DNA from: an uncultured Myxococcales bacterium
Lineage (GTDB): Bacteria; Myxococcota_A; Polyangia; Palsa-1104; JAEUJZ01
Assembly (NCBI GenBank): GCA_964554495.1
Contig: CAZKOY010000012.1
Span: 1,665 to 65,664, forward strand
Direction of reading: 5' to 3'
Length of the DNA stretch: 64,000 nt
In this document: positions 4,300-31,009 of the stretch, piece after piece
Numbering within the stretch: position 1 is the stretch's first letter
Layout: each line of letters starts with the position of its first letter
Program-made: the position numbers and the translations under genes
The notes under the pieces: model-generated
What the model was told of the DNA's origin: nothing
Database searches by the model: none
What the model saw: the letters and a program-made list of their open reading frames with translations, nothing else

Positions 4300-4416
4300 C
4301 CGACGCTCTCGCTGGTGCGGCGTTCTGCCGTGCGTTGCGTACAAGACAAACGAGCGCGCGATTGGCCAGAACAGCATCGCGATGAGCGCATCATTGGGCG
4401 TGATAGAAAGAGGCCC

Positions 4417-6548: not shown

Positions 6549-6604
6549 GAGATTTCTTAGACGTCCCTCATGCAGATCTGCAGCCCTTGCCGTAGCGATG
6601 AGGC

Positions 6605-11900: not shown

Positions 11901-12125
11901 ATGCGACCGGTGCTGGTCACGGCTCTGGTGGCGGCGCTGGGCTTCGTACCCATGGCAATGGCGCAAGGTGTTGGGTCCGAGGTGCAGCGGCCGCTTGCGA
12001 CGGTCGTCGTCGGTGGCTTGGTGACATCGACCGTGCTGACCCTGCTGATCTTGCCGGCCATCTACCCATTTCTGTCGCGCCGCCGCACGCCTTCACTCCC
12101 CTGTGATACGCCGCACTCGCCGTGA
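8991..12125 (+). CDS. czcA: Heavy-metal efflux RND permease, CzcA type
   Basis: 1044 aa; LDALPDVTNNQV, GNLMSLGAVDFGLLVDGAVVMVE (the DFG..D signature of CzcA-type divalent-metal exporters), RMRPVL, GSEVQRPLATVVVGGL. Confidence 0.9.
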   Translation: MSGGRISTWVQATVERRGLVLFVTCVLVAVAMVMASWLKLDALPDVTNNQVLVLTRAPGLAPEETESLVTRPIEAALGGMQWLKELRSISRYGISAVTAVFEDEAPPLVARQITAERLATISLPPGVDVPALGPLTGGLGEVFHFSITSTTRTLPELLELATLRIAPRLRMVPGIVEVNTWGGAERRLEVRADPLRLATSGVSTDSLVERLRQSIGSTAGASIPAGDGQALLRGVFRPQRPEDLSSLLLPSDLSTTATKDAPSRLRLSDVASVTEGESPRLGAATQDGRGEVVYLMAQMLRGENALEVLRSLHARMDEVRATLPADVQVKVIYDRSLLVHATLRTVAKNLLEGGFLVAVVLLLTLGSLRAGLLVAAVIPLSMLGASVAMVVAAVPGNLMSLGAVDFGLLVDGAVVMVEHLFHTPAERDGPELSVVQIVRERAGEVAKPVLFSVLIILLVYVPVLMLGGVEGKMFRPMAITVVCALFTSLILALLVVPAAAAQLLRRRDLYESRPPLLIRGLKRIYQPLLERAVAHPAIVAVLAGLLLASGVLLLLRSGSEFVPQLDEGDLVIQTTRHADISLETAVFRAQGMESLLRQRPEVEGVVSRIGSPAVATDIMGLEQADVFVRLKPIASWRPGLQRDALIREIEEQLAKDDPGSEPSFTQPIQMRFNEILAGAVTDVVVSIYGEDLALLDRLARAVARSCAAEPGAEDVRVMAPPAVPLAEVRPRAIEAAQAGLSPGEILSAVQAVRSGIPLGNTFFGPVRLPVVLRLGEAAPEAASLHALPLPLAGGGIVPLGRVADVSFLRAPTLILRHNGERRLMVGFNVRGVDLGTLLQRAERRVRDQVPMPAGYRLVWGGQYETFAAARARLGILIPVVLLIILGVLWRLFGSLRPTLILFSAVPFAGTGGVLALSARGMPISISAAIGFIALSGIAVLNGVVLMVRLLDLEQKGLSPQHAALQAASTRMRPVLVTALVAALGFVPMAMAQGVGSEVQRPLATVVVGGLVTSTVLTLLILPAIYPFLSRRRTPSLPCDTPHSP

Positions 12126-12413
12126 AGACGCAGCGCCTTTGGCCCTTGCCTGGGCGGCATATCCGTCGCGACACGCAGTCAGCCAAGCGCTCAGCGCGCC
12201 GCTCCATTGCCACATAAAATCGCGCTTCTGTTCCGCATATTCCGCGCCGCGCAGCGACGAATCTCTGTCCTGAACTTGCCCTGCGCCGCGCGCTCTGCGG
12301 GGCAGCGCGCAGAGGAATGATTCGGTTTGACGTCCCTAGTCGGGAGCTAGGACGCCCGTCATGCGCACACCAGGCCACACCTGCGCGCTTCGCGGGGCAA
12401 TCATCGAGGTGGA

Positions 12414-15400
12414 TCAGCTTGCGGGCGCGCTGGACGCAGCGGTGCCGATCGCTTTGGGCAAGAGGCCGGTGCGGACAAAGTAGTCCAGGTAGCGGCGCAT
12501 CAGAGCCGCATCAATGGCCGGGAACGCGATGCCGCTTCCGGCCAGCGCCTGTCGCGCAAGCTGGTTGCCGCACGTGGCAGACCGATAGTGGACTTCGAGA
12601 ATGGTATTGCGACCTTCATGCACCTTTTCGAGCAGGAACGGCGTGACGGGATACAGCGCATTGTCGGTCTTGCACGTGGCCAGCGCCTCGAACCACGCTG
12701 CGGGTTCCACCGCGCGAACTGGAAACCCCAGGTCGTGGATCATGCGGAACAGATCCAGGTGACTTGGCTCTTTGTCGCGATCGACGACCCACTGAAACGG
12801 ACCACGTAGCTCGCGAACAGCGACGGTCGCCATGGCCTGCGCGACAAAGTCCACCGGAATCGGACACCAGTACTTGCGAGGCAGATCGGGATAGCAGCCA
12901 AGCTGGATACAACCGACAACCAGCCGCGACATCAAATCGGAAAGCTTGACGGCACCAGTCTGTGTGCTGCCCGTGAGAAAACCCGTGCGATGAATCGTCA
13001 CCGGGAGTCCCTGATCGGCTGCTTGCTGGACGACGCGTTCGGCCACCCACTTGGACTTCGTGTAGCCATTTTCGATGTCCAAGATCGAGACACTCTGCTC
13101 GATGTCGTAGTCCTCAGGAATGTGGCGGATGCCGAGCAAGATATCCGCCGACCCGGTGACTCCCAGCGTCGAGGCGAAGTGAAAGCGCTTCGTGCGGGCG
13201 GAGAATGCGAAGCGCAGGGCATGGCGAGTCCCGTCGACGTTGGCAGCGCGCAGCGCCGCGTACGGCTTTAGGTGATTCACATCCGCCCCGCAGTGGAACA
13301 CGGTGTCGACGTCCCGCGCGAGCGCCATGTATCGCTCTGCCGATAGCCCCATCCTCTCGTCCCGCAAGTCCGCCGCGAGGACCTCTACTCGTTCGGGAAG
13401 GGTCAAGGTCAGGCCGTACTCGGCAAGCTGTGCGGTCAGACGTTGGTGCGCCTGCGCGTCGGAATCTGCCCGGACCGCGCAATAGATCCGCGGTGCGTCG
13501 GGTATTCGCAGTAGCTCGACCAACAGGAACGAGCCGAGAAATCCATTGGCTCCGGTGAGCAGCACAGATCGCATCGGGCCGCTTGCGGCCGGGGCTCTTG
13601 GCTCTGGCCACGGCTCGGGGTAGGCGGCTTCGCGGACATCGACGACTTCGGCGGCTGCTTGACGATAGGGCGAAGCCAACATCGCATCGACAACCCGCAT
13701 GAGGCTAGCGGGTGTCGGGTGTTGGTAAATCTGGCGGGCCGGCATGCGGATTCCGAACTCGGTCTTGATCGCCAGGATCAAGTGGGCAACGGCCATCGAG
13801 TTGCCGCCCATTTCAAAGAAGTGGCCCTGCACATCGAATGTTCCAAGCGGCAGGCCAAGCGCCTGATCGAAAAGCGCCGCCATCTCTGTCGCGCGCGTCG
13901 AGTTCGGGGTCACAACGCGGCGACGCGTCGATGGCAGCGGCAGCGCCGACCGATCGATCTTGCTGCGATTGGGCATCATCGGCATCGCATCCAAAGCGAC
14001 ATAGACCGGCGGCACCATGAAGTTCGGCAAGCGCTGGTCGAGAAAGCGCGCCAGCGATTCCTGCGTCAGCAGGTCGGGATCAGCACCAGGCCGTGCAACA
14101 AAGTAGCCAACCAGCGATCGCGTGGGTTCCGCGCCATAGCCCACAAGCTCAGTGGCGATCACCGCAGCCGACAGGATCGCAGGATGCGAGCCGAGAGCAT
14201 TTTCGATGGCGCTAAGCTCAACGCGGAAGCCATGCACCTTCACTTGATCGTCGCGGCGTCCGATGAATTCCAAGACGCCGCCTGGTTCGCGTTGAACCGC
14301 GATGTCCCCCGTTCGATACAGGCGCCCTGGGCCCCATGGATTGGCGACGAACACCGCGTTCGAAAGGGCGGGCTTGTGCAAGTAGCCGCGGGCCACACCG
14401 ATGCCACCGATGCAAAGCTCGCCAGCTTGCCCTGGGGGAACCTGCCGCAGCGCTTCGTCCACCAGGTACACCGAGACGCCAGGAAGTGGCATGCCGATAG
14501 GAGCCGTCTGCTCGTCGCCGACAAAGCGATGCATGGTTGCGCAGACCGTGGCTTCCGTCGGGCCATAGGCGTTCCACAGCGTGCGTCCGCCACCTGCCCA
14601 GTCGCGAACCACCGACACAGGGCATGCTTCGCCCGCCACGACAACGGTGCGCAGACAGGGCAGATCGTCGCGCGCGGACGTGAGGGTGGCGAGCAGCGAG
14701 GGCGCGATGCAGATCATCGTCACCTGCTTGTGCGCCAAGAAGGCCCCGAGCGCGCGGCCGGGAATCATGTCTTCCTTGCTGCCCAAGACCAGCGTCCCGG
14801 CCCCGGCGAGAACACTGAAGATCTCCCAGGCCGCAGCATCGAAGCTCAAGGAAGCAAACTGGATCAGCCGTGTGCGGCCATCTATTCCGAAGGCAGCGAC
14901 ATTGGCCAGTGCCAAGTTCAGCAAGCCAGCGTGCTCGACCATAACCCCCTTGGGTTCACCGGTTGAGCCCGATGTGTAGATAACGTAGGCCAGGTCGCTT
15001 GGCTGCACTTCCTCTGTTTTCAGATTCACGCCAACCGCGCGTTGCCAGCTTAGATCCTGGTCCATAAGCAAAATGCTTAATTCGTCAATTCCATCGGTCG
15101 CCATGGTCATATCGATGCTATATTTTCGCTGAGTCAATATGACTTTGGGACGCGTCTCGCTTGCCATGTACTGCAGGCGACGCTTCGGCAGATCGGCGTC
15201 TAGCGGAATGTAATAGGCACCTGCTTTGAATGCGGCGATTAACGCCAATATCATGTTCAAATTTGAATCAATGCAAATACCAACACAATCGCCACGCCGC
15301 ACACCCATTTTTTCGCGTAAATAAAATGCAAGTGCATCTGTGCGCTGCCACATATCGCCATAGCTAATCGTCACGCCAGCCTGTTCGAGGGCAACGGCTT

Positions 15401-15470
15401 CTGGGTGCTGAGCGCATATGGCTCGCAAGTGCGAGACAATCGTTGGCTCGCAGCGGGTGGTACTTTCCAT
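12414..15470 (-). CDS. Stand-alone NRPS-like enzyme: adenylation-PCP-thioester reductase (A-T-R)
   Basis: A cores YVIYTSGSTGEPKGV, NAYGPTEAT, GELCIGGIGVARGY, LYRTGD, GRRDDQVKVHGFRVEL; PCP FFEMGGNSM; SDR reductase LLTGANGFLGS and YTKSKWVAE. No condensation domain. RBS AAGGGA. Confidence 0.95.
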   Translation of the reverse strand: MESTTRCEPTIVSHLRAICAQHPEAVALEQAGVTISYGDMWQRTDALAFYLREKMGVRRGDCVGICIDSNLNMILALIAAFKAGAYYIPLDADLPKRRLQYMASETRPKVILTQRKYSIDMTMATDGIDELSILLMDQDLSWQRAVGVNLKTEEVQPSDLAYVIYTSGSTGEPKGVMVEHAGLLNLALANVAAFGIDGRTRLIQFASLSFDAAAWEIFSVLAGAGTLVLGSKEDMIPGRALGAFLAHKQVTMICIAPSLLATLTSARDDLPCLRTVVVAGEACPVSVVRDWAGGGRTLWNAYGPTEATVCATMHRFVGDEQTAPIGMPLPGVSVYLVDEALRQVPPGQAGELCIGGIGVARGYLHKPALSNAVFVANPWGPGRLYRTGDIAVQREPGGVLEFIGRRDDQVKVHGFRVELSAIENALGSHPAILSAAVIATELVGYGAEPTRSLVGYFVARPGADPDLLTQESLARFLDQRLPNFMVPPVYVALDAMPMMPNRSKIDRSALPLPSTRRRVVTPNSTRATEMAALFDQALGLPLGTFDVQGHFFEMGGNSMAVAHLILAIKTEFGIRMPARQIYQHPTPASLMRVVDAMLASPYRQAAAEVVDVREAAYPEPWPEPRAPAASGPMRSVLLTGANGFLGSFLLVELLRIPDAPRIYCAVRADSDAQAHQRLTAQLAEYGLTLTLPERVEVLAADLRDERMGLSAERYMALARDVDTVFHCGADVNHLKPYAALRAANVDGTRHALRFAFSARTKRFHFASTLGVTGSADILLGIRHIPEDYDIEQSVSILDIENGYTKSKWVAERVVQQAADQGLPVTIHRTGFLTGSTQTGAVKLSDLMSRLVVGCIQLGCYPDLPRKYWCPIPVDFVAQAMATVAVRELRGPFQWVVDRDKEPSHLDLFRMIHDLGFPVRAVEPAAWFEALATCKTDNALYPVTPFLLEKVHEGRNTILEVHYRSATCGNQLARQALAGSGIAFPAIDAALMRRYLDYFVRTGLLPKAIGTAASSAPAS

Positions 15471-15509
15471 TGCGATTTCCCTTGGCCCTGATAGTTCAGA
15501 GCATATGGT

Positions 15510-18500
15510 TTATTCGCTAAGTTTTCCTGATAACCTCGGATCAGGATAATGCGGTGGCCAAGTCAGGCCAACTCGCGCAAGCTGCTCTCGCCCGTGTTGC
15601 TCATGGTAAGAGCGTTTCTGGCTGTCGCTGGGAGCTAATCGGCTTAGAACCAAATGCGCCAATGCCGTTTCATAAGGCATGCCAGCACGCTGGGCATGGC
15701 GCAGGCTCAAGCGGGCCAGCGCGCTTCCTCGGCGAACACGCCCCTCTAGCAAGGCGTGAGCGCTCTCTAGCAAGAGCGCTCGCGGCCGACCCACGCTGAA
15801 GATCGCCACAAGTCGGTGCATATGAGATCGTGTCTTGGCAAGTGGCGTATTGGCATCAGCCAAGGCCAAAGGCGTCGTATCACGTACTAGTCCGACACAA
15901 ACCTCGGCCAAGATTGTTACGGCTAGGAGTGATTCATGCGAAACAAAAAGATGTTTACTAAAGAGATCCAAGGCCCGGTCAATCCAGCGTTGTGCTTCAA
16001 TGGTATTGGTGGTTATCGTGTGATAATATGCTTGTACGCAGGAATGGAATAGCAAACAGTGCGGATCGTTTATGCGATCAAGGTTCTTGCGAGCTAGATC
16101 CAATTCGCTTCGCGACCGCGCAGGCTGATTCAGATTTAGAAGAGCCAGAGCGTTGAGTGTGTGTCCCCATGCTTGGAATTGCACAATGCCGTCGACAGTG
16201 GCTCGTGCCTGAAGCGCATTCGATTCGTGCAGTGCATCATTGAATAATCCGTAATAATAGTAGACAAATGCAATCTGCAGTAAACAAGATAAACTTTGTT
16301 GATCGTTGCCTTGCTTGATGCTGGTTTGTATCGATAATTGGAAATGCTTTAGTGCTTCATAAAAATGCCCATGCTGCAAGGAAAGTAAACCATCGAGCCT
16401 GTTGCGAAGATCGATCAATGTGTCATCGTTGATAGGCAAAGACGCTGAAAAATCTGTCTGTGATAAATCCAAATCTGGATCCGCATCGAACGCGTACAGG
16501 CGGTGAAGGTAATTGATATGAATGGCGAAGAACGGCCGCAGCGAAGGCAGCTCTAGCCGCCGCACGATGCCGAGCGCCAGCAAGCAGACGCGATAGGCGC
16601 TGCTGTGTTGGCTCAAGGGCAGGAAGGCGCCGATGCTCTGGGCGGCCAGCTCGATGGTCTCAAGCGCCAGGCGGATCGCGTCCTTCGATGTGTGCGGCCC
16701 AAAGTCCCGCTGCGCAAGCGTGGCCGAAACCTCGGCTCGTATGCTCTTGGCCAAGGCGGCTGTAAGCGGCTCGGGTGCTGGCAGCGGATAACCCAGGGTG
16801 GCCCACGCCAGCTCGCAGCGTTCGCCGCTCTCGGTGAGTCGGCCCAGCGCCAGCAGAGCGCTGGCTGCGAGTCGGTAGCCAGGCGCCAGCGCGGTCTTCG
16901 CTTCAAGCTGCTCTTGCCAGCGGCGCAGATCGTTCAAGTAGGTCAGCGACTTCTCGATCGCCCCCTCGCGCAGCGCGCGTTCACCCGCCATGGTCGCATA
17001 GTGAACAGCCAAGCTCGCGACGCCCGCTTCGCCATAGTGATAAGCCAGCCGAGACGGATCGAGCTCGGCCGGCGAGACCGACCGCTCAAGCAGCTCAGCG
17101 ACCTTGCGGTGTAGCTGGCGGCGCTCATCAGGGGACAGCTCTTCGAGCAGACGCTCGCGAAGCTTGTCGTGCGTGAAGCGCCAGCCCTGGTTCACGGTTT
17201 CGAGGACCGCGACGTTGGCGCAGGCCTCAAGCCATGCGTTTAGCTGCGGCTCTTGCGATCGCAAAAGAGGCAGGTCGAGCTGACGCCCAGCCACGGCAGC
17301 CAAGTGCAGAAGCGGTCGCGCTTTCGCCGGCACGCGGCTGAGTCGTCGTTCCAGCACGGCGCGCATGCCGCCAGCAAAGACGCGATCGGGCAGTCGGTTC
17401 GAGGCAATCTCGCTGAGCATGCCGCGCTCTTCCGCCAGCGAGCGCAGGACCTCGACCATAAAGAACGCGTTTCCCTCGGTTTCTCGCAGCAGCAGCTCGA
17501 TGAGATCAGGGTGACCGCCGAGCGGACCCAGCATCGACTGACTAAGCGCGGTGACACTCGCTCGATCGAGCCGCGCGAGCCGAAGCGGCTCCATCGCGGG
17601 CAGCGCGGACGGAACCCACGGGGCCTCGTCATCACGGTAGCTGGCGATGATCACCAGCGGTCGCTTGCGGATGCTGCGCATCAGCCGGCTCAGCGTCAGG
17701 ATGACCTCGACCCCGGCCCAGTGGACGTCCTCGATGATCACCAGCGTCGGAGTGCGCACCAGGCCAAAGCAGTCGTCGATCGTCCGCAGCAAGCGCTCTT
17801 GCGCCGACTTGGCATCGACGGCCGGGCGCTCGACCAGCTCACGCTGCAGCAGCACGGGCAGGTCCGGGACCAGCGGCAAGAGCAGGCTGGCCAGGCTGTC
17901 ATCGCATTCGACTTGCAGAAGCAGAGCCCGCAGGACATCGCGGAATGCTTGATACGGGGCGGCGCCGGCTCGCAGTGTTTCACCTCGCAGCACCTGGATG
18001 CCGCGGACACGCGCCAGCGTGCTCACTTCATCGATGAGCCGCGACTTGCCAACGCCGCTCTCGCCGCCGACCAGCCACCCGCTGCCTCGTCCGGCCGCCC
18101 CTTCGTCGAGGGCGTCCATAAGAGTCGCGACCTCTTCATCGCGCGCGACAAAGGACGCCGCCTGCAGAAAGCTGTCCCGGATTGTGCTGGTCTCTGTCGG
18201 TACGCTCAGTCCGACTGCGCTCGCCAGCTTTACGCAGAGCTCGGACGCATCCTTGGGGCGGATCGCTGGATCCTTGGCCAGAAGCTGGTTTAGCAAGTCT
18301 CGCAGCGGCTCTGGCACGGCGAGCCAGCTGGTATCGGGCACGCGCGACAGAACCGCGGACACTAGGTCGCTGGTGGATGCGCCGGCAAACGGCGAACGTC
18401 GCGCCAAGAGCTCATAGGCCATGACGCCAAAGGCATATAGGTCGGTGGCTTCGCTGGGTCGCTCGCCCCACAGCAGCTCAGGCGCCATGAAGGCCAGGGT

Positions 18501-19175
18501 TCCGACGATGTTCTGCGCCGCCACATCCATGGACTTGGCAGTGGCCAGGCCGAAGTCGAGGACCTTGACGTGATAGCCCTGCGGTGTCGGCTGCGCGAGG
18601 ATGTTCGCGGGCTTCAAGTCGCGGTGCAGGACACCGCGGCGATGCAGATAGACCAGGGCCTGCGCCACTTGCAGGAGTAGCTCGACCTGCTGTGGATAGG
18701 CCATGTCACGGGCAACCGTCAGGATGGGCCAGGCATCGCTGAGCAGCTCCATCGTGAAGAACGGGGTGTGCTGGGCATCGAAGCCGTAGTCCAGCACGGT
18801 GATGATGTGCGGGTGACGCAGCGACGCGAGCGTGCGGAACTCTTGCGAAAGCGCGATGCGCAGCGCCACCGGGTCGTGCGAGTTTCTGATCTGCAGGGCC
18901 GAGCCCACGCCGAACTCGGTAATTCGGACGCTCATCGACGCGGTGGGCGGGGGGACTTGTGGCGCGGTTGCTTGCTGCTCGGTGTGGCTGGACGCGCTGA
19001 CGTTGCCGCTGTGGGTGACATCCAGCATCGGAGCCAGCGACGAGATGCTCTTGAGCGCGACCGGCTGGCTGCGCAGTCGATCTAGCGCGCGGTACACAAT
19101 CCCCATTCCTCCCTGTCCAAGCCGCGAGAGGATCTGATAGCGATTGCCGATAAGATTCGAGCGATTGGTGCTCAT
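15510..19175 (-). CDS. Ser/Thr protein kinase - AAA (STAND-type) ATPase - TPR-like helical protein
   Basis: Kinase LGQGGMGIVY, VALK, HRDLKPAN, DFG, GTLAFMAPE; Walker A GESGVGKS; Walker B LVIIEDVHW; helical C-terminus. Confidence 0.9.
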   Translation of the reverse strand: MSTNRSNLIGNRYQILSRLGQGGMGIVYRALDRLRSQPVALKSISSLAPMLDVTHSGNVSASSHTEQQATAPQVPPPTASMSVRITEFGVGSALQIRNSHDPVALRIALSQEFRTLASLRHPHIITVLDYGFDAQHTPFFTMELLSDAWPILTVARDMAYPQQVELLLQVAQALVYLHRRGVLHRDLKPANILAQPTPQGYHVKVLDFGLATAKSMDVAAQNIVGTLAFMAPELLWGERPSEATDLYAFGVMAYELLARRSPFAGASTSDLVSAVLSRVPDTSWLAVPEPLRDLLNQLLAKDPAIRPKDASELCVKLASAVGLSVPTETSTIRDSFLQAASFVARDEEVATLMDALDEGAAGRGSGWLVGGESGVGKSRLIDEVSTLARVRGIQVLRGETLRAGAAPYQAFRDVLRALLLQVECDDSLASLLLPLVPDLPVLLQRELVERPAVDAKSAQERLLRTIDDCFGLVRTPTLVIIEDVHWAGVEVILTLSRLMRSIRKRPLVIIASYRDDEAPWVPSALPAMEPLRLARLDRASVTALSQSMLGPLGGHPDLIELLLRETEGNAFFMVEVLRSLAEERGMLSEIASNRLPDRVFAGGMRAVLERRLSRVPAKARPLLHLAAVAGRQLDLPLLRSQEPQLNAWLEACANVAVLETVNQGWRFTHDKLRERLLEELSPDERRQLHRKVAELLERSVSPAELDPSRLAYHYGEAGVASLAVHYATMAGERALREGAIEKSLTYLNDLRRWQEQLEAKTALAPGYRLAASALLALGRLTESGERCELAWATLGYPLPAPEPLTAALAKSIRAEVSATLAQRDFGPHTSKDAIRLALETIELAAQSIGAFLPLSQHSSAYRVCLLALGIVRRLELPSLRPFFAIHINYLHRLYAFDADPDLDLSQTDFSASLPINDDTLIDLRNRLDGLLSLQHGHFYEALKHFQLSIQTSIKQGNDQQSLSCLLQIAFVYYYYGLFNDALHESNALQARATVDGIVQFQAWGHTLNALALLNLNQPARSRSELDLARKNLDRINDPHCLLFHSCVQAYYHTITTNTIEAQRWIDRALDLFSKHLFVSHESLLAVTILAEVCVGLVRDTTPLALADANTPLAKTRSHMHRLVAIFSVGRPRALLLESAHALLEGRVRRGSALARLSLRHAQRAGMPYETALAHLVLSRLAPSDSQKRSYHEQHGREQLARVGLTWPPHYPDPRLSGKLSE

Positions 19176-19227
19176 TCTGGCCTAACTGCTCGTGTTTATG
19201 ACATCCAAGGTGAGAGCAGTTTGTTTG

Positions 19228-19596
19228 TCAGACTCGACGAATCGAAACGTTTGCGAGGGTTGTACTAATCGACGCAACTGAGCGGAAGACGATGCGCTGC
19301 CATTCGATACTTGCGTCATAGACGATTTCGGTATAGATGCCAGCGGCGTTGTACTCTCTCATGATTTGCAGCAGCGGTTGAATGGTCGCTGAGTTCATGT
19401 ACTCAAGCGGCCTGAAGTCCATCGTGACACGCTTTTCTTGAATGGCGGGAATCAGGCTGCGCAGAAATCCGCCAATGCTCGCCGCGGGATCTTGAATCTC
19501 GCTGGTACCATGCCAGGTAATTAACGATTTGCCATCCTCTGTAGTGAAGCGAATCTGTAACTCATCCAGCGTCAGCGTGTGGTTCTCTGGACTCAT
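19228..19596 (-). CDS. SiaC-like / STAS-fold phospho-acceptor protein (DUF1987-like)
   Basis: 122 aa; WHGTSEIQDP, MDFRPLEYMNSAT (STAS D..L.YMNS phospho-site pattern), YDASIEWQR; 4-nt overlap with the upstream kinase gene. Confidence 0.75.
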   Translation of the reverse strand: MSPENHTLTLDELQIRFTTEDGKSLITWHGTSEIQDPAASIGGFLRSLIPAIQEKRVTMDFRPLEYMNSATIQPLLQIMREYNAAGIYTEIVYDASIEWQRIVFRSVASISTTLANVSIRRV

Positions 19597-20060
19597 GAAA
19601 GACCTCTCGTTGCCTTGATCGTCAAGATCTGGTTCACAAACGTGTAGCTGAGGTCAAACTCTCCCTCATAGCCAATACGATAGATGCCTAGCTGGCTGCC
19701 TTGGGACACTCCTGAGAGGAGTTCCTGCAGGCGCCGCAGGTAGAATTCTTCTTTGTTTGTTGAGCCAGCAAGTTCATCAATTCGCTTGGTGACTTGTTCT
19801 AGATGATCTACAGAGCGCACACCGTTAGATACTTCAATAACGACGTGACTATCCGTTACTGAAATTTCAAATTTGGCTTGAGGTGCAGACTCGGTTCGAT
19901 CGCCGTACTTGATAGCATTGCCAACCAGCTCTGAAGCAACCATGCCCGCGCTGTAGCGAATGTTATCTGGGTAACTCCGCAGGGTCTCTTCCACCATAAG
20001 CTTGACATTCTTGACGAACTGCCAAGCTACGGGAATATCCATTTTTATGGATTTATGCAT
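19593..20060 (-). CDS. SiaB-like / anti-sigma-type GHKL protein kinase
   Basis: 155 aa; N-box ASELVGNAIKYG, IEVSN, EFYLRRLQEL, G-box-like SQLGIYRIGYEG; lies between a PP2C gene and a STAS gene. Confidence 0.75.
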   Translation of the reverse strand: MHKSIKMDIPVAWQFVKNVKLMVEETLRSYPDNIRYSAGMVASELVGNAIKYGDRTESAPQAKFEISVTDSHVVIEVSNGVRSVDHLEQVTKRIDELAGSTNKEEFYLRRLQELLSGVSQGSQLGIYRIGYEGEFDLSYTFVNQILTIKATRGLS

Positions 20061-23000
20061 CGGACGACTCCAATGGCACGCGGCGAATGGCCACCAGGGT
20101 TAGATCATCGCTGATCACGAACTTGTTGGTTTCGTTGATAATTCGAGCCACGGTTTCTTCGGCAGTACTCATTGACTCAGCGGACTGCTGCAGTAATCGC
20201 GATAGACCGCTAGTCAATAGCATCGTACGTTTATTAATTTTGGCTTCTGTGATGCCATCGGTAAAGAGGAGCATGGTGTCCCCTGGCTCTAGGCGAACGC
20301 GGCCCTCTGGTAAGAGCGTGTCGATATCCGGCAGCACCCCGAGCCACACGCCGCACGTCTCGATCTGCTCGACGCTTCGCGTCGCGGCGCGATAGATCAA
20401 AAGGTCCTGGTGCTGTCCTGCAAATGCGATCTCACCGTCACGAAAGCAGAAGGCGGTGACGGTCATGTACTGATCCCGCCCGATGTGGGCGAGGTTGCCG
20501 TGGATGGCCGCGTTCACCAGAGCCAGGACCTCAGACGGCCGCGGCACGGTGGGGGCTTTCTGCAAGCTGGCGACGACGGAACGCACCGCCGTCTGCACCA
20601 TCATCATGCACAGCCCGGCGCTGATGCCATGGCCCGAGACGTCACCGATGAGCAGCCAGTCGGCGCCGGCCATGTGAAAGCAGTCGAAATAGTCGCCGCC
20701 GACATTCGCCGCTGGGCGCATGGTCGCGGCAAGCTGATAGCCAGGGATGGTTGGGCTCGTCGGAACCAGGACCGTCTGGATCTTGCGCGCCAGATCCATC
20801 TCGCTCCATAGCTCTTGCAGCGCCTTGCTGAGCTGGGCGGTTCGCTGCGCGACCTGCTGTTCCAGCGTGTCGTTCGCTTGACGCAGCTTTTCGGTCGCGC
20901 TCTGAAGGTTGTCAAACAGGAAGCCATTCTCAAGCGAGATCGTGGCTTGCGAGGACAGGATGCGCAGAAGCTCGACGCGATCGCTGGTGAACGCGTCGAT
21001 TGAGCTGTTGTTCTCAAGGTACAGGACCCCCGAGAGTCGCCCCTTGTGCTGCAGCGCCATGCACAAGATGGACTTAGGCCGCTGCGCTTGAATGTATGGA
21101 TCGGCCGAGAAGCGCGTGTCCTTGGCAGCATGGCCCAGCAGCACAAGCTCGCGCGTGCGCGCGACGTAATGAACCACGCTGGCTGCGAAGTCGTCGCGAT
21201 CGCCGATCGGTGTGTGGATGCCGATCTCGGCGCGCGGCGGGTTGAGTGTGAGCACCGCTTTTACCCACAGTGCGCCATCGCGTTCCAGCACCAAGAAGCC
21301 ACGCTGGGCCCCGGCGCTAGAGAGCACGACGCGCATGACGCGCTCAAGCACTTTGTCGAGGACGATTTCGCTAGAGATGGCTTGCGCCGCCTTCAGCGCA
21401 TGGTCCATGTCGATGCGTCGCCCTGGCATCCAGACGGTTGAGCTGCCTTCTGATGGCTCGGACGCAGGCGCTCGCGTGCTGGGGCGAGGACTGCCCTCGG
21501 CGAGCAGCGCGCCATACTTTTCTGAGATCTGGCGCACTTTGGCCGCCGCGCCCCAGCGCTCATATCCGTGACGGGCTTCGCTTAGAAAGAGAGCGGCGAC
21601 CTTTCTGCGGCCAAGCTGCAGATACAGGCGACCGCAGAGCTCGTTGGCCAGGGCTTCCTCTTGGGCCAGCCCACTGCGACCTGCCTGTTCGACGGCGCGA
21701 TCAAAAAGATCCAAGGCCCGGCCACGGTCACCGGTCGCGCGAGCGTGCTCAGCGTCAAGCAAGAGGAGCCGATGCTGCGCGTTTTCTGGACACGCGGCCG
21801 CCAGCGCGGCGACTTGTTCACGATGTCGAGAAAGCGATGCCCGCACAGCATCCTGAGGCAGATCCGTCCCTTCGGCGAGAGCCGATGCCGCCGCCAGACC
21901 GGCATAGAACGCCAGGTCCGTTGTCCAGTGCATCCCAAGAGCAGTGGCCAGGCTTTTCTCGGCGTGCTCGGCGAAAGAGAGCGCCGCCGCGTAGTCGCCA
22001 TGCAGGTACGAGAGCTGCAGCTTGTAGAGATGGAACAGACATCGGCCAGCCCCAAAACGCATAGCGTCCATGCGGGCCAGCCAGTCCGATTCATTGAAGT
22101 GCTCGTCGGCCAGCGAGGTTGGCGAGTGCGTCTGATCAGACAGCGCCGCAGCCACTTGCATGAGCAGCTCGTGCGCGCCCGTGTTGATCAGATCCTTGGT
22201 GCGCTTCATCGCCGCCATTCCGCGCTGCAGCTCGCGGCGCGTCGCTTCGAGAGGATCGCCCAAGCGCAGCTGAGTCAGCGGCAAGTAGGAAAACGCCAGC
22301 GATGCATAGAACAGATCACCTGTGTCGAGCCCGATCTGTTGCGCTTGGGCAAACTCGGTCAGCGTCTCGCGCAGCGGGTGCTTATAGGGCGCGTAGATCG
22401 CGTACATGAAGCGCACCTTGCAGGCCACTTCCGAGAAGCCGGTTCGCTCGACGAGCTGACGCGCCAGGCGGCCAAACGTATCGGCTTCGTCATAGCGCCC
22501 AAGAAGACCGGCCAAGATCAGCCCGTACGCCACATAGCCATAGGGTGAGAGTGCGGCATGGCCGTGATCCAAAGAGTGATGCGCCTGTTTGGCCATCACC
22601 AGCGCAGCCAGAGGTGGCGCCACTTGATACGCCGGCTGACTGAGCATGACCATCAGCTGCAGCACCGCGATCTTTTCGGGATCCTGCAGGCGCGGGGCGT
22701 CCAGCACAGCGTCGGTCGAGAGCGAAGCCATGCGCTGCTCAATGGCCATCACTTCGGCAAGCAGCGCGGCCTTGCAGCCCTCGGCTGTGGATGGCAGGGA
22801 CACACCCAAAAGAGCCAGGCCTTCCAGCCCCGCCTGCATTCCCTCTTCGAAGCGCCCTTGGGATGTGTACAGCATCAGGCGCAGCCCGAGGATGCTTGCC
22901 CGCTGAATGGTAGAGAGATCGCACGAGAGCAGGGCGCCCAGCTGTTGATCTGCGCGACCGAACTCTCCGACGAGATAGAGCGACTCAGCCAGGTCACGCC

Positions 23001-25398
23001 GCACCGAGAAGTCAAACTGCGGGTCGGCCGTCTGCGCATCTGCGCCAAGAAGCGACTGCGCGGCTTGCAGAAAAGACGTGGCCGCTGCGTACGCGGTCGC
23101 GCTGCGAGCCAGCCGCGCTGCGCGTTGATTGAGCGCTGCGAGGTCGCGACGTTCTGCAGCGTCTGCGATCTGCGCAGCCCCGGCGTTTAGATGGCTGACG
23201 ACATCAAAGAGCAGATCGGAACTTGAGTCGCTAGACAGTCGCTCATGCAGGTGACGACCAATGCGCAGGTGGGTGGCTACCCGATCCACCTCGCTTAGCC
23301 GCTGCAGAGCAACCTGCCGAGTGCGGTCATGAAGGAAGCGATACGTGATGATGGCCGCATCGGACCTGGTGTTTGCGTCGCTGGCTTCGCCCCCGGTAAG
23401 CAGGCGATAGTTGCTCGACAGCGGGATCAAAAGCCCGGCGCGAAGTGCGGGCCAAAGCACTGCGGCCGTGGCTGCGGGTGTCTGATCCAGTGTTCGTGCC
23501 AGCGTTCCCAGATCGAACTCGTACCCAATGCACGCTGAAACAGCCAGCGCGTGCTGGGTGTCTTGGCTGAACTGGTGCAGCTGTTCCGCGATGAAGTCCA
23601 TCACGTTTTCAGTCAGCGGCGCTGCAGCGATCTCTTTCAGGTTCCAGTTCCAGCGCCCCTGGTCGAGATCGGCCCACAACAGGGAACGCTGCACCAGCGT
23701 GCGCAGGAACTGCAGCAGAAAGAATGGGTTGCCATGGGTCTTGGTGAGCACCAGATGCGTCAGCGCATCAAGCTCAGGCGATGCTTCCTGCTGCAGGGTC
23801 TCGGCCAGCAAAAGACGGGTGCTTGCCGCGTCGAGCGGACCTAGCTGCAGCTGCGTTGGCGCGAGGCCGTGCTGTCGCAGCTTGTCGAGCGTGGCGGTAA
23901 GCGGGTGTGCCGCGTCGACTTCACTGCTGCGGTAGGCGCCGATCAGCAAGAGGTTTTGCCGCGCGGGATCCGAAAGCAGTGTCTGCACCAACCACAGGGA
24001 CGCCGAGTCCGCCCACTGCAGATCATCCAGGTAGAGCACGAGAGGATGCGCAGGCGAGCACAGAGATCGAACGAAGTCTTGCAGCACCAGGCCAAAGCGG
24101 TTCTTCGCCTCGGTGGGACCGAGCTCCTCGGGCGCAGCTTGCGCACCGATGATCAGATCGAGACCGGGGATAAGAGCGGTCAGAAGTCCGCCATTTGTGC
24201 CCAGGGCTGAGCACAGCGTTGTCTTCCAGGCCGCCAGTCGCTCGGGGCGCTCGCCCAGAAGCTGACGCACCAATTCCTGAAACGCGGCCACGAAAGCAGA
24301 AAACGGAGTGCTGCGATTGAGCGGATCAAACTTGCCCGAGATAAAGAGGCCGCCATACCGCGCGAGCGCCGGATGGACTTCGCCGATTAGCGATGACTTG
24401 CCAATCCCCGGCGGGCCAGTCACTAGGAGCAGCTCGACACCCCCTGCGCGCACGCGGTCAAATGCCGAGAGCAGCGTCGAGACTTGAGCCTCCCGACCGA
24501 TCAGCGTATGGGGAACCTGTAGCTCGGGGTTTAGATCCTTTCGTCCCAGATCGAACGCCTGGATCGTGCCGCTGGACTGCCATTCCGACAGGCAGTGCAT
24601 GAGATCCTGTGCAAGACCGCCCGCGCTTTGGTAGCGATCTTCGGCGTTCTTGGCCAGGAGCTTCATGACCAGCGCCGACAGCGCGGCAGGGATCTCTGGA
24701 TTCATGCGCTCTGGGGGCAGCGGCAGCTGGGCGATGTGGCAATGCACAAGCTCGCTGGCGTCGCTGCTGTGAAATGGCGGCGCCCCCGTGAGCATTTCGT
24801 ACAGCGTGACGCCCAGTGAATAGAAGTCGGTGCGGTGGCCGATGGGACGGTTCATGCGCCCGGTTTGCTCGGGCGACATGTACACCAGCGTGCCCTCTAG
24901 CGACTCGGCAGGAACCACGGCCTGTGTCTCCTGCGGCAGGCGCGCCGCAATGCCAAAGTCGATCAGGGTTACCTTGTCGGTCTCGTCTTCGACCAGGATG
25001 TTCTGCGGCTTGATGTCTTTGTGAATCACGCCCGCCTTGTGAACCGCAGCGAGTACCAGGGCCAGCGCATGCGCAAGCTTCAGGGCAGACTCGATGCCCA
25101 GGCGACCTTGCCGCAGTCGGGCGCTCAAGGGGCGGGCCGGAACCCGCTCCAGGATCAGCGCCAGCCCGCTTTGGTGGGGCTCCAGCGCGAGCGCCTTCAC
25201 TACATGCGGGTGCTTGAGATCACGAAGGATGGAATACTCATTCTGAAGTCTGGCTAGCTCGCGCGCGGATGGGTAGGCAGACTTTGGAACCTTTGCCACG
25301 ACAGGCAAGCCATCCTGATCGCGCTGGGCTTCATAGACCAGCGTCTCTGTGCCTTCGTGGAGCAGGTTCGTCAACGTGAAGTGGCCGGCATGAAGCAT
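20053..25398 (-). CDS. Multidomain Ser/Thr kinase - AAA ATPase - TPR-like - GAF - coiled coil - PP2C/SpoIIE phosphatase
   Basis: Likely ATG 25398 (ORF open from 25512). HKDIKPQN, DFG, GTLVYMSPEQTGRMN; GPPGIGKS, YLDDLQWAD; GAF (ISSEIVL, GVLYLENN); PP2C VGGDYFD, IGDVSGHG, LLFTDGITEA, DDLTLV. Confidence 0.92.
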   Translation of the reverse strand: MLHAGHFTLTNLLHEGTETLVYEAQRDQDGLPVVAKVPKSAYPSARELARLQNEYSILRDLKHPHVVKALALEPHQSGLALILERVPARPLSARLRQGRLGIESALKLAHALALVLAAVHKAGVIHKDIKPQNILVEDETDKVTLIDFGIAARLPQETQAVVPAESLEGTLVYMSPEQTGRMNRPIGHRTDFYSLGVTLYEMLTGAPPFHSSDASELVHCHIAQLPLPPERMNPEIPAALSALVMKLLAKNAEDRYQSAGGLAQDLMHCLSEWQSSGTIQAFDLGRKDLNPELQVPHTLIGREAQVSTLLSAFDRVRAGGVELLLVTGPPGIGKSSLIGEVHPALARYGGLFISGKFDPLNRSTPFSAFVAAFQELVRQLLGERPERLAAWKTTLCSALGTNGGLLTALIPGLDLIIGAQAAPEELGPTEAKNRFGLVLQDFVRSLCSPAHPLVLYLDDLQWADSASLWLVQTLLSDPARQNLLLIGAYRSSEVDAAHPLTATLDKLRQHGLAPTQLQLGPLDAASTRLLLAETLQQEASPELDALTHLVLTKTHGNPFFLLQFLRTLVQRSLLWADLDQGRWNWNLKEIAAAPLTENVMDFIAEQLHQFSQDTQHALAVSACIGYEFDLGTLARTLDQTPAATAAVLWPALRAGLLIPLSSNYRLLTGGEASDANTRSDAAIITYRFLHDRTRQVALQRLSEVDRVATHLRIGRHLHERLSSDSSSDLLFDVVSHLNAGAAQIADAAERRDLAALNQRAARLARSATAYAAATSFLQAAQSLLGADAQTADPQFDFSVRRDLAESLYLVGEFGRADQQLGALLSCDLSTIQRASILGLRLMLYTSQGRFEEGMQAGLEGLALLGVSLPSTAEGCKAALLAEVMAIEQRMASLSTDAVLDAPRLQDPEKIAVLQLMVMLSQPAYQVAPPLAALVMAKQAHHSLDHGHAALSPYGYVAYGLILAGLLGRYDEADTFGRLARQLVERTGFSEVACKVRFMYAIYAPYKHPLRETLTEFAQAQQIGLDTGDLFYASLAFSYLPLTQLRLGDPLEATRRELQRGMAAMKRTKDLINTGAHELLMQVAAALSDQTHSPTSLADEHFNESDWLARMDAMRFGAGRCLFHLYKLQLSYLHGDYAAALSFAEHAEKSLATALGMHWTTDLAFYAGLAAASALAEGTDLPQDAVRASLSRHREQVAALAAACPENAQHRLLLLDAEHARATGDRGRALDLFDRAVEQAGRSGLAQEEALANELCGRLYLQLGRRKVAALFLSEARHGYERWGAAAKVRQISEKYGALLAEGSPRPSTRAPASEPSEGSSTVWMPGRRIDMDHALKAAQAISSEIVLDKVLERVMRVVLSSAGAQRGFLVLERDGALWVKAVLTLNPPRAEIGIHTPIGDRDDFAASVVHYVARTRELVLLGHAAKDTRFSADPYIQAQRPKSILCMALQHKGRLSGVLYLENNSSIDAFTSDRVELLRILSSQATISLENGFLFDNLQSATEKLRQANDTLEQQVAQRTAQLSKALQELWSEMDLARKIQTVLVPTSPTIPGYQLAATMRPAANVGGDYFDCFHMAGADWLLIGDVSGHGISAGLCMMMVQTAVRSVVASLQKAPTVPRPSEVLALVNAAIHGNLAHIGRDQYMTVTAFCFRDGEIAFAGQHQDLLIYRAATRSVEQIETCGVWLGVLPDIDTLLPEGRVRLEPGDTMLLFTDGITEAKINKRTMLLTSGLSRLLQQSAESMSTAEETVARIINETNKFVISDDLTLVAIRRVPLESSDA

Positions 25399-25907
25399 GG
25401 TGATCGCTCTCGGCTTCGCAGAGAGTGGCGGGGTAGCTGCCCCCGAGCGCAGCACAGGAAAAATCATTTCATCGTACCACCCGCGATTCGCGGCTGTGAA
25501 GACGCGGGACATCCCTAGCCTGGGCTGTTGGAACCTGCTTTAAGTGCGCTTCCTCGCTGGATGTTGTCGTCGCGCCTGTGACGCCAGCGAACGACTGCGA
25601 AAGGCCATCGCGCAAGCGTGAGGCCGAATGGTACGGCGGTGGTGGCAGGCCCGCGGTTCGTGGCTGCCACCGGCCACAGCGATCCCTGCCAAGCCGCGCG
25701 GTCTGCGCTGCGGTCGATCTTGGGCGGCTGGACAGAACGACGGCTGCCCCCAGGCGTTCAGCTCGACCGAGTGCTTCGCCGATTCAGCGTTGTCGACGGA
25801 GCAAACGATTTCCTTGATCCGTCCCTGTCCAAGATTTTTTCGTTCAGACGAAAAAACGTTAATTCACCGCCTGCCGTGCCTATAGATAAATCTCCGCATG
25901 ATCTGCA

Positions 25908-25959
25908 TAGATATCTAAATTCGTACATAAATGAATTATTTATCAATCGATCTATTGAT
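25908..25959. promoter_or_regulatory. AT-rich region with two palindromes upstream of the kinase/Sia operon
   Basis: TAGATATCTA (25908-25917, perfect) and ATCAATCGATCTATTGAT (25942-25959, 18-nt palindrome with one mismatched pair). Function inferred. Confidence 0.4.
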
Positions 25960-26071
25960 GCATAATCCCGTGTGCGTTCCGCATATTCGGCGCTGCAAGC
26001 GGCGTTTCTTGGCCATGACCCTTGCATCGGCTGTGTGCCCTGTAGGTGCTGCAGCGAGGGCTTTAATTGGG

Positions 26072-28300: not shown

Positions 28301-29527
28301 TTACGGCCCAAGCGCTGCGCGGTCTTCGTCACGCCATTCGCAGTGCGTGGTGCGCGGGACCAGGACGCTCTGCACTTCGCCGCAGCGGCAGGGTTGATAG
28401 ACGCTTTGCACAAAGGCGCGCAGGTCGCGGCGCGCTTCAAGCTCGTCTCCGTCGGGCAGGCACACGACGAAGCGGCGCGAGAGGAAGCGAACCGTCAGAT
28501 TGCCGACGGTGTGATCGCCGCGAAACGTCGGATGGTCAAAGGCGGCAAGCAGGCAGAACAGCCCGTGGTCGTGCAGCGACTGACGCTTCGCCGAGCGCAG
28601 CCCCTTGGACAGCGACAAGAGCGGCGCCAGCGTGGGCACATCACCCGAAGCCGGGATGCGCCGCGACGTCGTCAGCGCGGCATCGGTGAAGTAATGAATG
28701 CCAGGCCGCCCGTACAGCCGAAAGAAATAGGGGATGTCGCCGCGCTGAAGCTGTTCGCGTTCGGCCGCAAGCAGCGGCGGATCGAGCTGCGCAGTGGGGC
28801 GCAGATAGTCCCCCGTGCTGCGCAGGCAGACGCGCAGCGGCGCGCTGTACACATCGGGAAGCTCTGACAAAGTCGCAGCGATTGCATCGCCATGACGATC
28901 GAGCGCACTCAAGGTCTGGTGATACGCACGCACCATCACAAGCAGGTCCGAGATCACCACCGGCTTCCCCAAAAAAGGAAGGACGCGCCGCACGCCGCAA
29001 GCGTGTCGATACAGCGCTGCATAGTGCGCGTCGGCTTCCGGCAGAAGTCGCGTGGCCGTGGGCAGATCGTGATCGTCCAGCATGAGCTCGACATCAAGCG
29101 GAGCCAGCACGATCCGCCCCTGCGCGTCGGTCCCGAGCGCAAGGTTTTCCCAGTGCAGATCGCCCAGGCCCAGCCAGCTATACAGCGCGATGGCGCACCC
29201 GGTGATATCGGCAAGCTGCTGGCGCTGATTTGCGGAAACGGAAGAAAGCGGAGATAGCGCGATGTGCTCTACATCACCCGCCATGGCGCCGATTCCTTTT
29301 TCGCGCGCGTGCGCCATTCCGAATTCTAGGTTGGGCAGAAAGTCAGTACGAATTCCCTCGCCATCGCCCCGGTAAAGACGAGCCAAGAGCTGACGCAGCG
29401 GGCTTTCGCTCGACAGAAGCAGCCATTCCCAAAAGACAGTCCGCGGCTTGAAGATGCGCCCATCGCGCTTTTGGACGTGCCGACCAAAGTTGTGACTGTC
29501 ACCCAGTCTGTGCGTCTGCCGAGACAT
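28301..29527 (-). CDS. Stand-alone LanM-type dehydratase domain (DUF4135), no cyclase
   Basis: LGDSH, FKPR, GDLHWEN, LDVE, RVCLRST, E..QL.RGDIPYFF; no LanC-like domain follows; likely ATG 29527. Confidence 0.75.
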   Translation of the reverse strand: MSRQTHRLGDSHNFGRHVQKRDGRIFKPRTVFWEWLLLSSESPLRQLLARLYRGDGEGIRTDFLPNLEFGMAHAREKGIGAMAGDVEHIALSPLSSVSANQRQQLADITGCAIALYSWLGLGDLHWENLALGTDAQGRIVLAPLDVELMLDDHDLPTATRLLPEADAHYAALYRHACGVRRVLPFLGKPVVISDLLVMVRAYHQTLSALDRHGDAIAATLSELPDVYSAPLRVCLRSTGDYLRPTAQLDPPLLAAEREQLQRGDIPYFFRLYGRPGIHYFTDAALTTSRRIPASGDVPTLAPLLSLSKGLRSAKRQSLHDHGLFCLLAAFDHPTFRGDHTVGNLTVRFLSRRFVVCLPDGDELEARRDLRAFVQSVYQPCRCGEVQSVLVPRTTHCEWRDEDRAALGP

Positions 29528-29599
29528 GGCGCGCAGTGTGGCCCGCCACCAAACAGCAGACAAGGACGATGGCGCCGCAGTCTTGCTGTCGCGATCGGT

Positions 29600-30754: not shown

Positions 30755-31009
30755 CGTCTGATTTTCGTTCAGAAAACCGCTTGCTGGCGACAGCTTTTGC
30801 AGGCTTTGTCTGCAGATTGTGGCCTCCAGTGTGCGACGGAGACACCGCCTGCGCACAGGCCCGCCGGCTGCACCCAGGCCGCCTCAGCCGCTGCTTTGCC
30901 GCCGGACTCGGGCTTTGGCGACGTTCCAGAAACCGCATACTGCACGAATGCATTGTTGTTTTGAGTTACATTCAAATCTCACGAAACAGAGACAGGGGAG
31001 GATGGACCC

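Follow-up and report, generated by a model that had tools for sequence, protein, structure and literature searches.

A candidate partner-switch cassette with two STAND kinases and a stand-alone A-T-R reductase in a Polyangia (Myxococcota) family

A 64,000-nt stretch of DNA from an uncultured Myxococcales bacterium, called the window below (positions 1665-65664 of contig C12, CAZKOY010000012.1, in a 6.27-Mb assembly of 430 contigs that is ~74% complete), contains a block of five genes that encode a predicted partner switch, two STAND Hanks-type kinases and a stand-alone nonribosomal peptide synthetase (NRPS)-like enzyme. The five parts are likely to function together as a single regulated system for a small molecule, as judged from their domains and from their joint inheritance in relatives. 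The open reading frames (ORFs), named G1 to G5 in the direction of transcription, are co-oriented, and the gaps of -8, -4, 52 and 39 nt between them, listed in a first-pass annotation of this DNA, were reproduced from the ORF coordinates. The domains named there for the five products were also borne out by Pfam and NCBIfam models, with the exception of TPR repeats. The cassette, its genes and their domains are located as follows.

12399-25565, minus strand: whole cassette, with limits set by homology with the congeneric genome G002
20053-25512, minus strand: G1, longest ORF 1819 amino acids (aa), Hanks-type kinase-AAA_16 STAND-GAF-PP2C protein; kinase ~24625-25374, AAA_16 23941-24504, a helical region of ~750 aa, GAF 20929-21360, PP2C/SpoIIE 20080-20658
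19593-20060, minus strand: G2, 155 aa, small GHKL-fold protein, a putative diverged slr1658/SiaB/SpoIIAB-like switch kinase or anti-factor
19228-19596, minus strand: G3, 122 aa, STAS-fold protein with the predicted phospho-acceptor Ser69 (codon 19390-19392) in EYMNSAT
15510-19175, minus strand: G4, 1221 aa, Hanks kinase, AAA_16 STAND NTPase (17646-18152, Pfam) and helical C-terminal region
12414-15470, minus strand: G5, 1018 aa, stand-alone NRPS-like adenylation-thiolation-reductase (A-T-R) enzyme; A 13971-15422, T 13695-13877, R 12459-13565 (minus strand, Pfam/NCBIfam)

No terminator-like sites were found on the coding strand in the 52-nt and 39-nt gaps, and nothing above chance level was detected in the search for terminators or promoters inside the gene block.

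The G1 protein matched four Pfam families with high significance, namely Pkinase (E = 7e-42), AAA_16 (2.7e-40), GAF (5e-14) and SpoIIE/PP2C (1.2e-31). The kinase domain contains the motifs HKDIKPQN, DFG and SPE, the NTPase the Walker A sequence GPPGIGKS, and the PP2C domain the complete set of metal-binding motifs (GGDY, GDVSGHG, FTDG and DDLT) expected of a partner-switch phosphatase. This phosphatase is fused to the kinase, AAA_16 and GAF domains rather than to a transmembrane (TM)-HAMP region, and G1 falls outside the SiaA type, as it scored 32 bits on the prot_phos_SiaA model, which has a cut-off of 700. In the middle region of G1 the best TPR match was TPR_CHK1 with a non-significant E-value of 0.13. 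The upper coordinate of the first-pass annotation, 25398, corresponds to Met39 of the longest ORF, and it is likely the true start of G1, because the orthologs are 1778-1785 aa long. The same architecture recurs in many Myxococcota loci.

The products of G2 and G3 were recognized mainly by their predicted folds. In Pfam the G2 protein gave a weak match to HATPase_c (E = 1.3e-3), and the G3 protein to STAS (E = 4e-4). Their top NCBIfam families were slr1658_superfam (NF047703; 43.3 bits) and slr1659_superfam (NF047705; 23.7 bits), in both cases below the cut-off of 100. The AlphaFold2 model of G2, with a predicted local distance difference test (pLDDT) score of 91.3, has the GHKL anti-sigma-kinase fold. 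When this model was compared using Foldseek, the best hits by E-value were SpoIIAB (E = 1.9e-6) and RsbW, and the highest template-modeling score (TM-score), 0.75, was obtained for SiaB (6kko_A). G2 also has an invariant N-box (E44..N48) and a GSQLG box. The model of G3 (pLDDT 92.7) has the STAS fold, and its similarity to anti-sigma antagonists and to SiaC was about the same (TM-scores 0.58-0.66; 0.65 for the full-length alignment with SiaC). A profile of 24 G3 homologs matched the Thermotoga antagonist TM1442 (E = 8e-7), whose YMDS motif and phospho-serine were aligned with YMNS and Ser69. Both N68 and S69, the latter being the serine of the YMNS motif pointed out in the first-pass annotation, are invariant among these 24 homologs. 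Hence, G3 combines a STAS fold with a conserved serine acceptor, as expected for a STAS antagonist. The EYMNS69 sequence also resembles by eye, without an alignment, the LYLNT68 motif, which is the mapped phospho-site of SiaC (PMC7647112).

The relationship of this pair to known families was examined using family models. G2 scored 18.1 bits on the SiaB family model (NF038262; cut-off 85), G3 gave no DUF1987 (SiaC) match at E<=0.01, and the G3 family profile matched SiaC only at E = 1.7. A search of the PDB found no sequence-level link between slr1658-type proteins and SiaB. Nevertheless, the fold of G3 (TM-score 0.65) and the position of its acceptor agree with SiaC despite the failed family model. 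The description of the module as SiaABC-like therefore holds for gene order and folds, but not for membership in the SiaB and SiaC families. From sequence and models, G2 and G3 are best described as a diverged branch of the slr1658/slr1659 type, with predicted SiaB/SpoIIAB-like and SiaC/SpoIIAA-like folds.

The G4 protein matched Pkinase (E = 9e-42) and AAA_16 (E = 1.2e-20) in Pfam. Its kinase domain has all canonical Hanks motifs (GQGGMG, VALK, HRDLKPAN, DFG and APE), with an insert of ~60 aa following the β3 lysine, and its Walker A motif is GESGVGKS. The C-terminal ~520 aa are helical. The TPR repeats proposed for this region in the first-pass annotation were unsupported, as the best match in a search of 521 aa was TPR_2 with E = 0.29.

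The G5 protein matched AMP-binding (E = 5e-82), PP-binding (8.5e-13) and NAD_binding_4 (5.9e-62), and it scored above the cut-offs of TIGR01733 (390.5 bits; cut-off 317.4) and TIGR01746 (289.9 bits; cut-off 213.35), which identifies it as an A-T-R enzyme. The phosphopantetheine attachment site reads GGNS, and the R domain contains the motifs GANGFLG and YTKSK. The specificity code of the A domain, read manually at the positions of the GrsA numbering, is DAWCVAAVCK, which agrees with Phe codes at eight of ten positions; on the same numbering Asp235 and Lys517 of an α-amino-acid pocket are present. The corresponding codes of G5 orthologs are DAWCVGAVCK, DAWCVCAVCK and DAGCIAAVCK. Judging from this code, G5 probably converts a Phe-like amino acid to a reactive amino aldehyde, so that the amino-aldehyde product suggested for this gene in the first-pass annotation is plausible. 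Amino aldehydes dimerize spontaneously to dihydropyrazines and pyrazines, such as 2,5-dibenzylpyrazine. The Phe-specific A-T-R enzyme ATRed of Xenorhabdus forms 2,5-dibenzylpyrazine via phenylalaninal (PMC7586950), and GupB carries out the same chemistry with Tyr (PMC8179380). The A-T-R order of G5 is common to ATRed of Xenorhabdus indica, PvfC, GupB and the fungal LnaA/HqlA. Such stand-alone enzymes have the same D235/K517 amino-acid-type code, and the Phe-like pocket is that of ATRed. Unlike G5, none of them has been described beside a partner switch or STAND kinases, and the G5 locus differs from theirs also in the absence of tailoring genes. Homologs of G5 at 37-41% identity were also seen in cyanobacteria (Nostoc, Rivularia, Brasilonema) and in liverworts (Marchantia, Riccia).

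To define the limits of the gene block, the window was compared with the congeneric genome G002. All five genes fall within one gapless blastn alignment (13,174 nt, 93% identity), which covers positions 12399-25565 of the window and matches G002:C32. The shared block starts 53 nt upstream of the G1 ORF and extends 15 nt past the stop codon of G5, and the flanks on both sides are unrelated in the two genomes. A further ~170 nt of leader (window 25699-25869) are 81% identical to G002, and the homology ends beyond it; a segment of 133 nt (25566-25698) in the G1 leader of the window is absent from G002. A serine recombinase gene is located in G002 ~290 nt beyond G5, and in the window there is a tyrosine integrase gene at 29600-30856. 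From these alignments the five genes are regarded as a conserved and apparently transferable five-component cassette. The region upstream of G1 contains two further features.

25513-25869, minus strand: leader and probable promoter region of the cassette, based on homology with the upstream DNA of G002
~25880-25960: AT-rich stretch just beyond the G1 leader, probably a promoter

The base composition of the cassette is uneven. The low GC content that the first-pass annotation had counted by hand at 15241, 16261 and 19801 was confirmed in windows of 60-120 nt (37-44%), but the background is 63-65% rather than the ~70% given there, and the same patches have 42-54% GC in windows of 300 nt. A patch of G4 at ~15876-16478 is low in GC and fast-evolving, with DNA 76-87% identical to G002 in comparison to ~95% elsewhere, and the GC content at third codon positions (GC3) of G4 is 0.43 at aa 901-1100 versus ~0.8 in the rest of the gene. 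This patch is part of a contiguous low-GC tract (~15000-16560, GC3 ~0.43-0.6), which covers the C-terminus of G4 and the N-terminus of G5 and is the most diverged part of the block between the two congeners (76-89% identity versus ~95%). The low-GC patches occur in both of these genomes, and the G4 of STL-MYX5, another relative, shows no GC3 dip (0.9-1.0). In every genome checked the GC3 of the GHKL-STAS pairs was below that of their neighbors, which means that the low GC of the pair is a family trait. Each of the two low-GC tracts falls on a gene junction that is absent from other lineages, namely that from G1 to the first pair (pairA) and that from G4 to the A-T-R gene (ATR), and the tracts may mark the rearrangement that built the gene order of the window.

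To obtain a broader picture of the switch family, a pattern derived from the GHKL alignment was used in a scan, which found 79 loci in Myxococcota, Spirochaetota (mostly Leptospirales) and Desulfobacterota. Their common core consists of PP2C, GHKL and STAS, and in many Myxococcota the PP2C domain is the tail of a G1-type protein. The gene after STAS is not consistent across this wider family, where the neighbors are heterogeneous; in the spirochete branch it encodes a methyltransferase-like protein. Cyclases are located near just three of the GHKL loci, and no GGDEF domain or diguanylate cyclase was found in the cassette or among 29 scanned downstream neighbors of homologous STAS genes. One Leptospirales genome contains a tandem duplication of units made of GHKL, STAS and an 859-aa PP2C protein (L037:10001-19901).

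The loci that also contain an A-T-R gene displayed four gene orders, in which most relatives have two GHKL-STAS pairs and an arrangement other than that of the window.

Order 1, G1-pair-G4-ATR: the window, congeneric G002, and L114 (ATR 68% identical)
Order 2, pairA-ATR-G1-pairB-G4: G014/L007, L002-4 and G021 (L099 plus L009); L115 shows this order up to pairB, where its contig ends
Order 3, pairA-orf96-ATR-G1-pairB: L005 (divergent G4 upstream) and L116 (upstream gene cut by the contig end)
Order 4, two loci in STL-MYX5: ATR-G1-pairB at one and pairA-G4 at the other; pairA-G4 is likewise seen at L001

The gene called orf96 is a conserved ORF of 96 aa between the STAS and A-T-R genes (L005:5657-5947 and L116:1985-2275), which has no Pfam match and is absent from the window. 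The GHKL genes of the loci with these four orders form one clade (support 86/86). The GHKL copy of the window groups with the copies of the pairs followed by G4 (support 99/97), which suggests that the version in the window has lost one of the two GHKL-STAS pairs. The gene right after STAS is G4 in the window, G002, L114, L001/L006, L009 and G014.

The co-occurrence of these genes was followed in three sets of data. The same five of 41 relatives contain both A-T-R orthologs (identity of 52% or more) and GHKL genes that belong to the clade (46% or more). Among 401 genomes of the class, representing 162 genera, the A-T-R orthologs were again restricted to those five, with the next best match at 36% identity; the distant A-T-R gene of G011, at this level of identity, has no switch beside it. 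In a collection of 5.8 billion proteins, A-T-R homologs of at least 50% identity carry the switch in the contexts examined, while metagenomic homologs at 45-48% identity are located in unrelated catabolic clusters with no switch. Thus, G5 orthologs at or above 50% identity occur only beside, or in genomes with, G1, G4 and GHKL-STAS pairs. The first-pass annotation had named a lack of synteny of the NRPS-like and STAND kinase genes with the switch elsewhere as evidence against its proposal, and the data showed that they are linked or co-occur in every lineage with an A-T-R ortholog. The five-component cassette has so far been seen in one Polyangia family only.

The genome of the window also contains paralogous switch modules. 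At C34:15875-36939 (locus L105, C34:15000-34999) a full-length G1 paralog of 1808 aa is followed by slr1658 (214 aa), slr1659 (119 aa), a class III nucleotide cyclase (425 aa) and a type I polyketide synthase (PKS) of 4429 aa that ends in a TE domain. This pair passes the cut-offs of both families (164 bits for slr1658 and 110.5 bits for slr1659), and the order is kept in G002, G004, G001 and G015, three of which belong to the same genus and one to another genus. The cyclase has the motif DLETIIET at its N-terminus, and no similar motif was found in the five cassette proteins. At C155:3-10547 (locus L106) an A-T-C-A-MT-T-R NRPS (2946 aa) is directly followed by a G1-like kinase-AAA_16 protein that is cut by the contig end, a second case of a synthetase with a terminal reductase beside a kinase of this type. 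A third module, at C6:71117-73584 (locus L107), consists of a SiaA-like membrane PP2C protein (528 aa, 66 bits), a GHKL protein (166 aa, 39% identical to G2) and a STAS protein (124 aa); genes for substrate-binding proteins and a TonB-type receptor are located upstream and an ABC exporter downstream, with no cyclase or synthetase. Overall, a megasynthase abuts three of ~7 G1-type genes in this genome, although the regions within 5 kb of such an enzyme amount to only 1.5% of the genome. The probability that this adjacency arose by chance is ~1e-3 to 1e-4, as a rough estimate rather than a computed value, which makes chance unlikely.

The comparison with known partner switches further defines how the cassette differs from them. 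The SiaABCD system of Pseudomonas aeruginosa, which consists of the PP2C phosphatase SiaA, the kinase SiaB, the phosphoprotein SiaC and the diguanylate cyclase SiaD, is a partner switch with a non-sigma output (PMC7647112, PMC8457831). It has in common with the cassette the gene order of a phosphatase, a small GHKL-fold kinase and a small STAS-like phosphoprotein, and in both the output is not a sigma factor. In contrast to TM-HAMP SiaA, the phosphatase domain of G1 forms the C-terminal end of a cytosolic protein with kinase, STAND and GAF domains; the second STAND kinase and the A-T-R enzyme are found only in the cassette, which has no diguanylate cyclase. The proposal that a STAND kinase takes the position of SiaD is in part consistent with the data, as G4 follows STAS in several loci and a class III cyclase has this position in the paralogous module. 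However, no diguanylate cyclase is found with this switch family in the loci examined, so the replacement of SiaD is better viewed as an analogy than as a derivation. Another partner switch with a non-sigma output, BgrU/W/V of Sinorhizobium, is cited in the SiaABCD work (PMC7647112). The slr1658 protein is a regulator in Synechocystis (PMC7555055). DUF6272, the Pfam entry for the slr1658/slr1659 pair, was recorded on several homologs; in contrast to G2 and G3, the texts covered mention no linkage of the cyanobacterial pair to genes for Hanks kinases or NRPSs. The RsbU/RsbW/RsbV and SpoIIE/SpoIIAB/SpoIIAA systems have, as here, a SpoIIE-family PP2C phosphatase, an anti-factor of the GHKL fold and a STAS serine at the start of helix α2, and Foldseek or profile matches of the cassette proteins included SpoIIAB, RsbW, SpoIIAA and TM1442. 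They differ in that the cassette has no sigma factor in or near it, has an asparagine in place of the G1-box aspartate, and carries its phosphatase on one polypeptide with a Hanks kinase and a STAND NTPase. The four-domain architecture of G1 (PK, AAA_16, GAF and SpoIIE) is also listed for LIC12324 of Leptospira interrogans in the domain table of a transposon-mutant study, where no NRPS is mentioned (PMC5100919). Mutants in lic12324 and in the cyclase gene lic12327, three genes away, had lower fitness in hamsters (PMC5100919). As far as the domain table and this spacing indicate, the Leptospira genes may have a G1-GHKL-STAS-cyclase layout as on C34.

Based on these data, we lean slightly toward the view that the cassette encodes a variant form of the known partner switches, which either governs a Phe-derived amino aldehyde or pyrazine or receives it as input. 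In such a system the STAND NTPase, the GAF domain and the atypical Hanks kinase of G1 would serve as sensors. The PP2C domain of G1 would remove the phosphate from Ser69 of G3, and G2 would add this phosphate and/or bind G3. Unphosphorylated G3 would then act on G4, the protein encoded next to it, in parallel with the action of SiaC on SiaD and with the position of the C34 cyclase after the STAS gene. The resulting kinase/phosphatase network would control G5, presumably at the post-translational level, and G5 would load a Phe-like amino acid and release the amino aldehyde by reduction, with dimerization to a pyrazine.

Several observations weigh against this view. The G1 kinase lacks the GxGxxG glycine-rich loop. 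The G1-box aspartate of G2 is replaced by Asn79 in all 18 aligned homologs; hence, its use of ATP is uncertain, and it may bind G3 rather than phosphorylate it. The five proteins contain no DNA-binding domain, and the cassette data give no sign of how phosphorylation would control an NRPS. In most relatives the A-T-R gene is located upstream of G1, after another GHKL-STAS pair, and gene position therefore points to neither G4 nor G5 in particular as the target. No megasynthase domains were found near the other 70-odd GHKL loci; they are confined to one clade, so that the NRPS link is specific to this clade and not general to the switch family. Moreover, the Phe assignment depends on the hand-read code, and all genomes compared are metagenome-assembled genomes or metagenome contigs of one family, representing ~4-6 related lineages.

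The location of the A-T-R gene upstream of G1 in several relatives is equally well explained if its product is sensed by G1, and the suggestion of the first-pass annotation that the switch may gate production was in this respect overstated. When this explanation is taken to its full extent, the flow of information is reversed: the aldehyde, pyrazine or derivative made by G5 would be a ligand of the GAF domain of G1 or of the variable C-terminus of G4, and the switch would be a receiver in an autoinducer-like loop with its output elsewhere in the genome. The A-T-R gene is directly upstream of G1 in three of the four gene orders, G1 has a GAF domain of the small-molecule-binding type, and the cassette lacks an output domain such as a DNA-binding domain or sigma factor. 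The C34 cyclase, an enzyme that makes a GAF-type ligand and is encoded after STAS, likewise suggests feedback from a product to GAF, and pyrazines made by A-T-R enzymes are described as signals in Pseudomonas in the part of the Pvf literature covered (PMC10194917). However, most G1-GHKL-STAS modules have no A-T-R gene, so that an A-T-R product is not the general ligand of the GAF domain, and no conserved transporter or receptor logic is seen around the cassette. We consider a reversed flow unlikely; it is also compatible with control of G5 by the switch, since a feedback loop would include both.

It is less probable still that the genes are not functionally coupled, and that G4 and G5 are passengers of the G1-GHKL-STAS module in genomes rich in kinases and biosynthetic genes. 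Hanks kinases number in the hundreds in myxobacterial genomes (PMC2887360), and the evidence for coupling is all comparative and comes from few, related lineages. On the other hand, the linkage survives at least four rearrangements, the G5 orthogroup is never seen without the other parts in the 401 genomes and the metagenome contexts, the block has sharp boundaries at both ends, and little of the genome is close enough to a megasynthase for the repeated adjacency to be expected. The least probable explanation, which we regard as very doubtful, is an NLR-like (STAND) defense or conflict system, in which G1 and G4 would sense an invader by their helical regions and the aldehyde from the A-T-R enzyme would be a toxic effector. 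This would be consistent with the patchy presence of the cassette within genera (two of seven and two of ten genomes), its unrelated contexts beside recombinase genes, and the low-GC, fast-diverging patch in the C-terminus of G4. The kinase domains also match the PD-T4-6 and Mad6 models of PADLOC, but these matches cover the generic kinase domain only, while G2, G3 and G5 had no match, so that the role in defense mentioned in the first-pass annotation gained no specific support. Also, ~ten or more AAA_16 kinase paralogs are present in the genome, the G1-GHKL-STAS core is kept across phyla as a signaling module, and no other defense genes are evident beside the cassette.

The favored view, in which the partner switch and the amino aldehyde or pyrazine are coupled, would extend what is known about such switches. 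The known targets of partner switches are sigma factors and, in SiaABCD, a cyclic di-GMP enzyme, while here a diverged switch is inherited together with a pair of STAND Hanks kinases and a minimal reductase of the NRPS-like type, and its sister module on C34 together with a cyclase and a PKS. A real coupling would provide phosphorylation-based control of small-molecule synthesis in myxobacteria, which are major producers of natural products with poorly understood regulation of their clusters, and the kinase-STAND-GAF-PP2C architecture, also present in Leptospira, would gain a concrete read-out. The coupling is unusually clean, and the five genes within 13 kb are few enough for heterologous expression tests. 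A wider and rather unlikely generalization is that G1-type proteins of this Polyangia family and their GHKL/STAS pairs are dedicated in-cluster post-translational controllers of thiotemplate enzymes, in which the STAS protein would switch on the enzyme encoded next to it (a STAND kinase, or the cyclase located by the PKS), which would in turn gate the megasynthase. If true, this would be the first partner switch with a eukaryote-like kinase output and the first that gates a pyrazine-type signal. In a full-text literature search of incomplete coverage, which is weak evidence of novelty, no publication was found in which a switch of this type is combined with an NRPS-like reductase or with STAND kinases.

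The surroundings of the cassette in the window were also inspected. No tRNA gene that could be an integration site was found within the 64 kb. The tyrosine integrase gene, ~4 kb upstream of the cassette, adjoins an ORF of 420 aa (region 28301-30856), for which a faint match to DUF4135 (LanM-type) was the only one obtained. On the other side, a histidine kinase gene and an OEP-HlyD-AcrB efflux operon (4315-12125) are convergent on G5, and this region is not kept beside the cassette in G002.

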